A DNA stretch of 63,742 nucleotides, filler included, from Collodictyon triciliatum (lineage: Eukaryota): assembly GCA_043381765.1 (NCBI GenBank). It is 6 parts of 6 records of this genome, joined end to end, with 100 filler letters (N's around TTAATTAATTAA, not from the genome) between each part and the next. Parts side by side here need not be neighbours in the genome. Positions count along the whole stretch, not along the records: positions 10,359 to 20,617 come from JBHJMP010002746.1; positions 20,718 to 27,773 come from JBHJMP010002748.1; positions 27,874 to 38,113 come from JBHJMP010002749.1; positions 38,214 to 53,409 come from JBHJMP010002750.1; positions 53,510 to 63,742 come from JBHJMP010002751.1; 1 more part is not named here. One strand, written 5' to 3'. Below the pieces are notes generated by a model. The model made no database searches. It was not told the origin of the DNA and saw nothing but the letters and a program-made list of their open reading frames with translations. Position 1 is the stretch's first letter, and the number at the start of each line of letters is the position of its first letter. Both the position numbers and the translations under genes were made by a program. Positions 10,682 to 62,191 of this stretch are shown here, piece by piece.

Positions 10682-13600
10682 GTCATCTACACCACAGTCC
10701 CATCCGGGTACACATCTGCGCACGGGCAAGCAGGCGGACAATATGTATCAACAAATACAGGCATATATATCACCGGCAATAATGTTCCCCAACAGGCCGG
10801 TCACCAGTACATTGTACAGCAACAGCAGCAACAGCAACAGATTGTCCCACCTGCTTATTCATCTCAGTACGCACAATTGGAGCCTATACACTACCCCACA
10901 CAAACACCTCGTAGCATAGCGCAAATTCAGTCACACCCAACACATATTCAATCACAACAAATGTACCAAGAATCACAGATAGGTTATCAGCAGCAGCAGC
11001 AACAACAACAACAACAACAGCAACAGCAGCAACAACATGCTTACCAAAATCAACAGTCACAGCAATCATCCGCCTTGTCACAGGCCGACCTTCGAAGAGA
11101 GTATTTGAAAGATCAAGGATATTTTCAGGGTGTGTCGCAGCCACCACCTTCACCACAAAATCGGTAAGCATCACAGGCTTCTTGCATGCTAAAGTGCACT
11201 GATATTTTTTCCTTTATTCGATTCAAAGTGCAGCGAGGTTATGCCAAAGTGTACTGATATTAAATCATTCTAAATATTAACCATAATTCAAGATCATGTG
11301 TGATTACGCATGAGACTTTACAACAAGAAGTACCTTTTTTTTTCAATGTTACTTCCATTCTTCGACATATACCCTTTGAAAGAGAGGGGGTTGCTTTGTT
11401 CTGCATTATTTGATATTAACCGCATGACTTGAACACATTCAGGGACTATGACGAAAGAAGAGCATATGAATCAACTAGAAACTTTGACCTTTCAACATCC
11501 GTCAGAAATGATAGCGAGGTTGAGGTTTGTGGTAACATAGGAAAATCGTTAATTCTTCTGTTTGAGCATACTAAATGGAAACAGCTTCTCATGGATAATT
11601 CGTTATTTTATTTTAAAGCAAAGTTTGCTCTTGATATTGATATCCTGATTATGTATGTGAAGTTTTGATGGCTTTTCTTTCCTTGATACTGAGTTGTGTA
11701 TGAAAAGTATAATTTTGAGACTCATCCATGTTTCTCTCATTCTTTTTCATTAACATATTTTCCATTCCTTCTGCTTGTAAGTTATTTGATCCTGTTAAAA
11801 ATATATTAGGTACTTAAGTCGAAGATAGCCGACTTGGAGCGGCTTGTAAGGTCCCAGGAGAGCGAGCTACAAAGAACCAAGCTAGAATACCAGCAAAAAA
11901 TAGACGACCTCGAGAAGAGGCTATCAGGTGCTACAATAATGTCTTCTCAGGAAAGTGTACCGCAAAGTAGTGAGATCCACGCGCGGTTGTCTGAGCTAGA
12001 AAGAAAATACGGAAGGAAACAGCCAACTTCCTTCGGCTCCGAAGCTTCTCAGTAGAGTTTGAAATAAGCATACTGGGGGGACTTTAAACCCAAATATGAG
12101 AAAACTCTTCGCAATTGCATTTATATATATGTCATATATTTGAAGTTGACAGTACTTAATCACGGGTCTGAAACAGGTCAACTAGGAGCTTTAAACTGAG
12201 GCAGGATGAATCCCGGCCTCAGTATGAATTTGGGCGCTCTCTGCGAGATGAAGGGTATTCTGGATACAACATAGACCCGCCGAAATCAGCCCCGACAAAC
12301 TCCACTAGCCATGTTGTCGAGTATAAAACTGAAAACATATTCGAACAACCATCAAAGAGAGACGTCTCTTCAAATTTGATACAACAGTTGGTCTGTATAT
12401 ATTTTATCTTCGACGTGTTATTTCATTTATGTCTAAGTGTAAACAAGAACCCCCCCCCAACTGATTCAGATGCTCACACTGTCTAATGGGTGCATGAAAT
12501 TCAAATCGAAGCATAGTTGATGAATATACGATGGAAGCTCCTTTTTTTTTCTTTCCCCCTTTATTCGATTCAAAGTTACGAAGGAAACTTTAATAGGCAC
12601 TTTCACCAACTCCATCAGAGAGAGGAGCACCTAGTACACCAATTGACCATGGGTATCGCTCTGGTTCCGTTGCCCCTTCGATGATGGTGCAGACTCCCTA
12701 ACATTTTTTCCTTCTTACTGGCCTCTACATATCTTTGTTATTCATATGTAATGCGAAACCCTTTTACTTTGGAAGAGAAGAAAATATTCTTGACTAAAAT
12801 TGTGCCCGTAACAAACCCAGAACTCTGTCGCTTCTACCAAAATGGAGCCACGGCATGTAAGGATCTTCAAAGGGGACCAAATCATTTTTACAGGTCCCAC
12901 TTCAGTCTTTTTAGCGTTCTAATTGAAACACAAAGTTATGCACACCTATTAGGGATATGTTTGGAGGATATGGTGTTTGCTTTTTCTTTTAAACTTGAAT
13001 GATTTTGTCCATAAGAGTTCCAATGGCTTTTTTCCGTCCAATTAAGTATATTCTATTAGTATCATATTATTTGTAATGTTATTTTCATGTTTTCTTAATA
13101 GTGGTGTCTGCAAGGAATCTTTCTGCGAAAGACAAGGATACAATAGACCCATTTGTATCGATTGTGTTTGGCAGACAAGAAGCGAAGACTGGGGTTCAAA
13201 AGCGCACCCAGAAACCGATCTGGAAAGAATCTTTTAGTTTGTATGTTTTTATTATTATTAGTTATTTATTTATTCTAAAGCACGCTCTCAGAACAAGGCG
13301 CTAATAAGAAATCAGAGACTCCAAAATCACCCAAAATCATCCAAAATCAATCAAAATGATCTAAAATATCTTATTGAGATTGAAAAGCTTGATGGCATAA
13401 ATACTGTCCAATGTTAGCAAAATTTCGTCATCTGTATTTTTCTCTCTCGTGGAATTATAAATCCTTTCAATCGTGCAGCGCGGTATTCGATACCTTTGAA
13501 AAGGTAAAAGTCACAATTCATGATGCAGACCAAGTGCCTCCAGGAAATGTATTGGGAAAGGTAAATATTCCAGTACAGTCTCTCCAGGAAATTGCTTGGT

Positions 13601-15328
13601 ATGAACTAGAAGAACAAGGTATTTTTTTTTCGAACATTTCAAGAAAAAAAAAAAAGAATTGAAGCACTCGGTTTACTTATTTCCTGCATGCCGAAAACAT
13701 GGCCTCATTGAATTTTAGATCAAATCCTATTTTTATCGTATATACATTCTCTCCAGGAAAGTATGCAGGGGAAATAAAAATCCAAGTCAGAGTGGCAGAA
13801 CAAACAGCTGCCAACTCATCACTTCAGTTCGACAATGGTCAAATGGAATCTGTCGACATATTCTCAAAGCCAAAAGTATGACCCACGCCCTCTGTAAATA
13901 GATATCAAATGATTTTCAACTGGACTTCTTCAATCAAATATAGCATCAGCCCCATTATACTCCCTGATTCATGACTTATTTACTGATCAACCCTTGACCT
14001 CTTTGATAAAATTCTTCTGATTAGAGTGAGAACAGGTCTCTACCTCAAAGTTCTCTTTCTACACCATCTAAACTGCGAGAGGTTCAGCTTTCAGTCGATG
14101 GTGAGTTAGTCACAACGTAAAATAGTACTATAATATATCAATCGTAGCCATAACTCTTTCAAAGTGTACCGACATATCTTGATTTTTTTAATCAAATTCT
14201 TTGCAGTCGTTCAAGCACAAGGATTAGTTTCTAAAGATATCACTGGTAAGAATATTTATGTAACATTTGTTCGATAAGAGCACGTCCACACAATCGAAAT
14301 AAAACTATTCAAACGAATGAACTTTCGAATTAAGATGCTTTACTCGCCATACATTCAAGGCTCGAGCGACCCTTATGTCGTCATGAAAATCGCTGGACAA
14401 GAGCAAAAAACAAGTGTGGTCAAGAGGTCTTTGAATCCCAAATGGTTTGCCATTTTTAAACTCCGACGGGATACCCACAAGAATAACCGTATCCGAGTGC
14501 TGCTTTTTAGACAATGAGCAATAATTCACTTATTTTTCGCTCTGCTTGTTTATTCAGGAACCAATCATTTGTATTCGACGGAGTCGGTCGAGACCAAGAC
14601 CTCAGCATTGCTGTCTATGACTGGGATAGAATTGGAAGTAAGAAAGCTTAAGACGTGAAACAATGTTTATCTCGCTCTGTTTATTTCTACATTATCCCAT
14701 CAATTTTTGTCAGTCGTAGTTTTTTTTTAATCTAGCTTATAGATTCATATTTCCGATGGTGCGGTGTTTGTATATTTTAAGAAATAGTTTTTGTAAGATT
14801 TTTTTTTTTTTGTAAATCCTCGAGACTTTTAAAACTCTTACACTATATATACGAAACAGATAACGAGCTCATCGGAACAGTATCCATTCCTATTGATAGG
14901 CTAGGAGACGGCCACGAGGATTGGTATCAAGTAAGTGATAAAAACTAGGCGTTGACATGTCATACAATCGCCTATCATTTACTGTCAAGAGTCGTTAAAA
15001 AACAAAAACAAAAACAAAAACAAAAACAAAAACAAAAACAAAAACAAAAACAAAAACAAAAACAAAAACAAAAACAAAAACAAAAACAAAAACAAAAACA
15101 AAAACAGTGGAGATATTTTTTTTTATCTTTTCGAATAGACACATACAAATAAGCAAAAACAAAGGATGTCTAAAACGAGAGTTTACACCGCCAATCGACG
15201 CCTGTGAACCCCACCCATACCACAACACAGTGTAACTTGATGCCTTATCCATCACCCAGCTCACCGACAAAAGCAAAAAAGGAGACCAGAAAACCGGCGC
15301 TGTGTTCCTTCGACTGCAGCTGCAGTAA
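10682..15328 (+). CDS. Gln-rich, coiled-coil, double C2-domain protein (5' end probably truncated by contig start)
   Basis: PolyQ exon at 10682-11163 and coiled-coil exon at 11810-12049. Two C2 domains follow (VVSARNLSAKDKDTIDPFV; VVQAQGLVSKDITGSSDPYVV...VYDWDRIG), with TAA at 15326-15328. Confidence 0.8.
11186..11261 (-). mobile_element. Micro-insertion copy A with 21-bp TSD
   Basis: ATGCTAAAGTGCACTGATATT (11186-11206) + TTTTCCTTTATTCGATTCAAAGTGCAGCGAGGTT + ATGCCAAAGTGTACTGATATT (11241-11261). Flanks are 19/21 identical; intronic. Confidence 0.8.
12527..12589 (-). mobile_element. Micro-insertion copy B with about 13-bp TSD
   Basis: TACGATGGAAGCT + T-rich tail/CCCCCTTTATTCGATTCAAAGT + TACGAAGGAAACT. 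Flanks 11/13 identical; intronic. Confidence 0.7.
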
Positions 15329-15729
15329 TACAAAACACCTCATTTAACGCGACCAAAGAAAAAGAAAACAAGACCAAAAAACAGGACAAATGGCATTCGC
15401 CGCAACAATCCGAACGATTTCCGAACCAATAATAAAACCCAGTCCGACGAAGCAAAAGGTGCGATTCAGAATACACGCAAAAGATTAAAAAAAACCACAA
15501 AATAAAACAAAAAAGAAAAGATTTAAAAACCCACAAAAGAATAAAACAAAAAAAAAGAAAGAAAAGAAACAAAAAAGGAATGAAAAAGAAACCAAAAAGG
15601 AATAAAAGGAAAAAAAGAGAGAAAAGAAAGAAAAAGAAAGAAAAAGAAAGAAAAAGAAAGAAGAGAGGAAAAGAAGAGAACACGACACCAAACAGCTTGC
15701 TATGCACTAAGCGCCGCTCCCTCAAAGCT

Positions 15730-62047: not shown

Positions 62048-62139
62048 CCAGGGCCAGTGCTCCTTTTTTCTATTTGATAATTACTAAAGAGTCTTTCACT
62101 GCTCTCCGAAACCTCATATCATGAGATTCTCACACAGGC

Positions 62140-62191
62140 AAACAACACAGGCTTCCCTTGAGTCGAATAAAGGAAGAAAACAACTCTCGCT
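62140..62191 (+). mobile_element. Micro-insertion copy H with about 14-bp TSD
   Basis: AAACAACACAGGCT + TCCCTTGAGTCGAATAAAGGAAGA + AAACAACTCTCGCT (11/14). Confidence 0.6.

Follow-up and report, generated by a model that had tools for sequence, protein, structure and literature searches.

Dispersed through a 63,742-nt stretch of DNA from the genome of the protist Collodictyon triciliatum (assembly GCA_043381765.1; the whole stretch is referred to here as the window) are very short inserts with a 19-nt core in common, ACTTTGAATCGAATAAAGG, and, after it, an A-rich tail with frequent G interruptions. The core most likely represents the final 19 nt, at the 3′ end, of a long interspersed nuclear element (LINE) of this protist that is L1-like and poly(A)-tailed, and its copies 5′-truncated tails of this element that were inserted by target-primed reverse transcription (TPRT). 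Homology to a LINE 3′ end, A-rich tails, an enrichment of flanking target-site duplications (TSDs) and a ladder of LINE-derived lengths that peaks at 19 nt are all observed directly. The initial annotation of the window had attributed the inserts to TPRT by the machinery of an APE-type LINE, and the LINE 3′ end, the A tails and the TSDs support that attribution.

The window joins six unlinked pieces (1-10258, 10359-20617, 20718-27773, 27874-38113, 38214-53409 and 53510-63742) by linkers of the form N44-TTAATTAATTAA-N44, and contains further N gaps at 19777-19786, 42323-42807 and 48452-48700. All nine copies of the core named in the initial annotation are present as motif matches and, because they fall in pieces 2, 4, 5 and 6, its statement that they occupy four unlinked contigs is correct; the purine-rich or A-rich tails it described were likewise seen, as A/G-rich tails, in all copies. 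Two copies beyond these nine were detected on the minus strand, one diverged (61742-61760) and one much shorter, which keeps only AATAAAGG (61243-61250). The resulting density is 11 copies in 62,558 non-N bases, or approximately one per 5.7 kb.

Chance recurrence of an AT-rich word might be considered in an AT-rich genome with many A-rich microsatellites, and was addressed by counting matches in shuffled sequence. The 13-mer TTGAATCGAATAA has 14 matches in the window with up to two mismatches, six of them exact, versus 5.3 expected, and this number was attained in none of 100 dinucleotide shuffles. It also defines the only dispersed 13-mer family in the window that is not of low complexity and has at least four copies. 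The 19-mer core has 10 matches with up to three mismatches, and 20 block shuffles gave 0-9 matches only at the far looser threshold of five mismatches. Chance is thus a scarcely credible source of the family. Matches at 32624, 54975 and 58794 (four to five mismatches) and at 40583, 40798 and 49190 (two mismatches to the 13-mer) lie within the chance range and were excluded from the counts. Upstream of the copies the flanks have no homology in common, every one of the 45 pairs being 25-45% identical across the first 40 nt in ungapped register, Rfam at gathering thresholds returned no match at the copies, and a keyword search found no papers on the motif itself.

Metagenome contigs were scanned exactly for the 19-mer core, which yielded 12 loci. 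Eleven are chance matches inside apparent coding regions and are unrelated, and the only LINE-like locus, L003, lies on a contig of 1157 nt and is read on its minus strand. There, the C-terminus of an ORF2 protein with a zf-RVT domain is followed by a 3′ untranslated region (3′UTR) of ∼95 nt, the sequence ...GGCATAACCTCGCTAC, the core and A10, such that the poly(A) tail is immediately preceded by the 19 nt of the core. The open frame carries a zf-RVT zinc knuckle (PF13966, 32.4 bits versus a cut-off of 27.5), and a second frame, past a frameshift, ends ...ITDFFPVLASPR before a stop codon. The frameshift (minus strand, ∼549-606) is relative to P0123 and P0137 (...DYAPNRLSASDILFGPQ...), two proteins that are 98% identical to that of L003 and whose frame is intact at this point, indicating a multi-copy family of which L003 is a slightly decayed member. 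Prokaryote and viral collections, searched with the core and a purine tail, yielded 19 loci and 1 locus, respectively, all of them chance matches without LINE context.

When L003 was compared with the window by blastn, the copy at 11211 matched over 42 nt with 97.6% identity (41/42, E 2e-14), its homology extending 17 nt beyond the core into the L003 3′UTR, and the other nine motif-bearing copies were found to begin at L003 positions 1028-1031, as borne out by local alignments. The copy at 56786 also extends into the 3′UTR, by ∼4 nt, whereas that at 61243 is cut within the core and retains 8 nt. L003 itself, with at least 1027 nt of the element, forms an upper rung of the same truncation ladder. 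The initial annotation had envisaged a separate micro-retroposon system with a tiny template of its own; since copies extend into the LINE 3′UTR, such a system is not required, nor is it demonstrated. Its other proposal, that reverse transcription stops or the RNA is cleaved at a site close to the 3′ end of a LINE, agrees with the position of the core in L003. The ladder of longer copies leading into one LINE 3′UTR, which it had regarded as the mark of ordinary truncated LINE ends, is seen in part, through the copies at 11211 and 56786.

A word-index protein search with the L003 open reading frame gave no match, and a profile-free HMMER search of 1.84 billion representative proteins with the L003 protein gave 14 relatives, the fragments P0123 and P0137 among them. 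Four of the 14 are full-length (1226-1275 aa) and contain Exo_endo_phos and RVT_1 domains in every case and zf-RVT in three. L003 is 25-38% identical to the full-length relatives, and matches the C-terminal region of one, P0131, with 28% identity over 159 aa (E 3e-17). The top solved-structure match of P0131 is human L1 ORF2p (3.4e-57), which covers both the endonuclease and the reverse transcriptase (RT), with R2 at ∼1e-23, suggesting that the source element is L1-like; its endonuclease and RT are predicted from the relatives at 25-38% identity. The window contains one L1-like RT fragment of its own (53068-53409; Table 1), which scores 28.6 bits with RVT_1 (E 1.4e-6), slightly below the cut-off of 29.6, and includes the motifs ...KAYDYVNHEAL... 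and ...YQGCPLAPLLF.... It starts right after an A-rich, tail-like stretch, GGAAGAATAAAAAAAAAAGAAAAAG, a position that suggests insertion into a previous, older tail.

For each copy, the best ungapped direct repeat shared by 40 nt of upstream and 55 nt of downstream flank was scored, and the scores were compared with those of 4000 random control sites from which periodic sequence was excluded. A score of at least 8 was reached by six of the 11 copies versus 7.45% of controls (binomial P 5.7e-5; Mann-Whitney P 2.5e-5), and this is the enrichment over controls on which the initial annotation had made the insertion model depend. Only three copies have clear-cut repeats (insertions 1, 3 and 9 in Table 1); those of insertions 2, 5 and 8 are weaker, and at copies 34061, 47884, 52867, 62155 and 61742 the repeats are at the chance level set by the controls. 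On the basis of these scores, five of the seven TSDs claimed previously stand, and the remaining two do not rise above the control level. In the six flanked copies the TSDs are of variable length (12-21 nt) and differ at each locus, the downstream repeat directly follows a tail of 4-18 nt, and in five the upstream repeat directly adjoins the 5′ limit of the homology. An unbiased scan for exact repeats of at least 11 nt, spaced 6-90 nt apart and with an A-rich spacer end, detected two loci only, both of them LINE tails. A looser scan gave 17 close repeats, of which the top scorers were the three clear insertions, besides coding tandem repeats at 24662-24887. The TSD starts with A in five of six cases and is preceded by T in five of six, in agreement with an L1-type nick site, although in an AT-rich genome such a preference could not be established from six sites.

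It is proposed that the endonuclease of the element, the type of which is predicted from the 25-38% identical relatives, would nick a T-rich/A site, and that the freed T-rich 3′ end would prime on the poly(A) tail. Reverse transcription would then usually halt after only 8-36 nt of 3′UTR, so that termination, and not RNA cleavage, would set the 5′ ends. Joining of the stub to the other side of the staggered break would generate the 12-21-nt duplication, and the outcome would be scattered, dead-on-arrival inserts of 16-45 bp. Many features of the copies are those of 5′-truncated members of the L1 clade, including a retained 3′ end, a 3′UTR end that contains AATAAA, an A-rich tail, TSDs whose length varies from 12 to 21 nt, with a possible preference for A at the start and T before it, and microhomology at the 5′ junction of the longest copy; a further likeness lies in the zf-RVT domain at the ORF2 C-terminus, the relatives of which possess APE and RT domains and a best solved match in human L1 ORF2p. 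The median length of de novo human L1 insertions is given as 712 bp in one study (PMC11702581), compared with a median of 19 nt and a maximum of 36 nt for the tails in the window. These tails differ from L1-clade truncated copies, in addition, in that their ends heap at one base and that they often contain G runs (GGGGGAAAG..., AGGAGAAAA...).

Short interspersed nuclear elements (SINEs) and other non-autonomous retroposons take the 3′ end of a partner LINE and are mobilised in trans, and a discrete 5′ end is expected of them. The copies in the window resemble SINEs in having a LINE 3′ end in common, but they are without a head, an internal promoter or similarity to tRNA, 7SL or 5S RNA, and the unit of 8-36 nt has no constant 5′ end, the same one being found in five of 11 copies. 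A keyword literature search for LINE families made up mostly of copies shorter than 40 nt, with supplementary files outside its scope, produced nothing relevant.

LINE-derived lengths were determined by local alignment to the last 79 nt of L003 before the tail, and are 8, 16, 17, 18, 19 (five copies), 23 and 36 nt. Five copies begin exactly at ACTTTG, and nine of the 11 begin 16-23 nt from the tail. The common 5′ stop at CTTTG described in the initial annotation therefore holds as a hotspot, with five of 11 ends at one base, but not as an absolute limit, as ends range from 11 nt inside to 17 nt outside it. Clustering of at least five ends at one base has a probability of 0.0005 under a uniform 8-36 null and of 0.0035 under a geometric null. 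At the hotspot of the L003 3′UTR ends a weak 4-bp hairpin, to which no weight was given. The clustering itself is real.

Several observations weigh against early termination of a LINE transcript as a complete account. The tail and an RT or endonuclease domain never occur on one sequence, L003 being 1157 nt long and frameshifted; the link between tail and LINE depends on this single metagenome contig from outside the C. triciliatum genome; and the RT fragment in the window cannot be assigned to the family of LINE from which the tails come. Five of the 11 copies have no TSD above chance. Simple early termination, moreover, does not predict that five of 11 ends should fall at one base, and the fold of the 3′-terminal 159 nt of the L003 element is no more stable than that of shuffled sequence (z = -0.51; 66 of 200 shuffles at least as stable). 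The junctions are a further point. At the copy at 11211 the TSD end (TGGCAT/TAGCAT) coincides with LINE sequence to give 5-6 nt of junction microhomology, a feature reported for 5′-truncated human L1 insertions in PMC11702581; the three 19-nt copies with TSDs lack it, the TSD abutting ACTTTG, and junctions without microhomology are associated there with run-off at the RNA 5′ end.

The last three of these points favour an unlikely alternative, in which a separate RNA of 19 nt plus poly(A) was copied to its very 5′ end. Its source could be a 3′ fragment of the LINE RNA, released where a small-RNA-guided slicer or some other endonuclease cut at one specific site (CUAC/ACUUUG). In that case the 19-nt copies would represent full-length products, and copies of other lengths would be ordinary truncations of uncut RNA. 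The three junctions without microhomology are compatible with a cut between CUAC and ACUUUG, five of the seven copies that reach nt 19 stop there, and no stable fold explains a stall. On the other side, lengths of 8, 16, 17, 18, 23 and 36 nt occur too, no known self-cleaving RNA or other ribozyme was found in L003 in Rfam at E up to 1, and 19 nt is too short for a promoter. The sample is also small, with the boundary fixed by TSDs in only three of the five copies, and its low side is under-sampled, since most copies shorter than ∼13 nt are missed by motif-based detection.

The setting of the copies bears on whether they are inserted DNA at all. The strands of four host genes were set by Pfam domains plus neighbouring exons, and five insertions (11211, 12558, 28387, 46193 and 56786) lie antisense in introns. 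The copy at 61243 is sense in an intron, with the host strand taken from exon-like frames only, the one tested having no Pfam match; at five antisense versus one sense, the number is too small for a test of bias. The copy at 34061 starts 20 nt past the TAG codon that closes an open frame of 288 codons (34103-34966, same strand), and could provide that gene with its poly(A) signal. This position, and the presence of AATAAA within the core, would suit a conserved polyadenylation or termination signal of the host that is not inserted DNA. Such a signal is a very improbable explanation of the family given that six copies are bracketed by locus-specific direct repeats, five are antisense within introns of genes for which Pfam domains establish the strand, the A-rich runs are genomic and not added to a transcript, and the sequence runs on into a LINE 3′UTR.

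Table 1. Copies of the core and other features located in the window.
Feature	Position	Strand	Sequence	Flanking repeats	Setting or remarks
Insertion 1	11186..11261	-	34-nt insert	TSD AATATCAGTACACTTTGGCAT / AATATCAGTGCACTTTAGCAT (19/21)	
Insertion 1, LINE-derived part	11211-11246	-	36 nt	overlaps TSD end by 5-6 nt microhomology (TGGCAT)	
Insertion 2	12527..12589	-	exact 19-nt core (12558-12576) + tail GGGAAAGAAAAAAAAAGG	AGTTTCCTTCGTA / AGCTTCCATCGTA (11/13)	
Insertion 3	28363..28422	-	19-nt core, 1 mismatch, + tail AATAAAA	perfect 17-nt TSDs ATACTAGTTGTAAGGTT (17/17)	antisense in intron of + strand UGGT-like gene
Copy 4	34052..34079	-	ACTTTGAATCGAATAA + GAAAAAAAAA	no detectable TSD	
Insertion 5	46179..46231	+	core 17/19 nt + GAAAAA	AATCACTATGAAAA / AATCAATATGGAAA (12/14)	antisense in intron of - strand MFAP1 gene
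Copy 6	47886..47926	+	TTTGATTCGAATAAAGG (17 nt, 1 mismatch) + A/G tail	no significant TSD	
Copy 7	52868..52885	+	CTTTGAATCGAATAA, 3′ side degenerate	no significant TSD	
Insertion 8	56765..56833	-	23 LINE-derived nt (CTTCAC-TTGAATCGAATAAAGG) + tail GGGAAAAAC; 13 nt unmatched filler on 5′ side	GGTATTTGTAAA / GGTATTTGTTAA (11/12)	antisense in intron of + strand mitochondrial-carrier gene
Insertion 9 (new)	61219..61268	-	only AAATAAAGG + A7 (16 nt)	perfect 17-nt TSDs ATACTCTTACACAAAAC (17/17)	
Copy 10 (new)	61742..61760	-	ACTTTAAATTGAATAAAGA + A tail; diverged	no significant TSD	
Copy 11	62158..62183	+	TTGAGTCGAATAAAGG + AAGAAAACAA	no significant TSD	
L1-like RT fragment	53068..53409	+	tblastn E 9e-19 to P0133		runs off end of piece 5
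tRNA-Sec gene	3422-3508	-	Rfam 73.4 bits; ARAGORN anticodon TCA		

Separately from the copies listed, a long (GGAAAAA)n-type microsatellite on the minus strand (16150-16310) starts with CGAATAAATAAATAAACGAATAAATAAATAAAGG and may derive from a decayed LINE tail in which the A/G portion expanded. The window has many A/G-rich microsatellites of this kind (e.g., 10359-10560 and 40934-41023), and LINE tails may therefore seed them.

The DNA of the window is nuclear and eukaryotic; its exons are short, and its introns are AT-rich and loaded with microsatellites. Exons of TCP-1, MFAP1, a UGGT-type glucosyltransferase, a C2-domain protein and a mitochondrial carrier were recognised, and the TCP-1 alpha exon is 90% identical to a Diphylleia rotans transcriptome protein, the remaining matches listed being at 70% or less; judged by this one exon, the host is probably related to Diphylleia (collodictyonids, CRuMs). 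The tRNA-Sec gene, which is the only Rfam match in the window at gathering thresholds, indicates that the host uses selenoproteins. A frame with NHL repeats gave no match when compared with longer proteins. In piece 3, the plus-strand regions 23430-23801 and 26797-27375 have a near-identical segment of ∼120 codons in common (...QEPAPTKDSPFT.PQPVAPRTKEQE.TAQ.ESKLGTSHT...), with common 13-mers at 23445, 26569 and 27022; the pair either arose by local segmental duplication or belongs to another repeat family. In the literature on mobile elements of the lineage, the term "transposable elements" was absent from the collodictyonid-specific papers among the matches listed.

As a type of event, the insertions described here are ordinary, and it is their extreme shortness and the frequency with which they end at the same base that are unusual. 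It is doubtful that most of them were copied, by run-off, from a defined RNA of 19 nt plus poly(A) generated by a site-specific cut in the LINE 3′UTR. If they were, the cut might be small-RNA-guided slicing as a host defence, the genome would record thousands of "decapitated" retrotransposition events, and the ratio between 19-nt stubs and long copies would be a measure of how well the element is disarmed by the host ahead of reverse transcription; the 19-nt-plus-poly(A) unit would also be, to our knowledge, the shortest discrete retroposed unit. If, as is more probable, the inserts are 5′-truncated LINE tails, what appeared to be a new class of mobile element becomes recognisable as the tails of an L1-like LINE, and the clustering of their ends at one base offers a small clue to what limits reverse transcription in vivo. 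For annotation, the dominant LINE footprint in such a genome may consist of stubs of 16-45 bp, which are missed by standard repeat finders and which bring AATAAA signals into introns.

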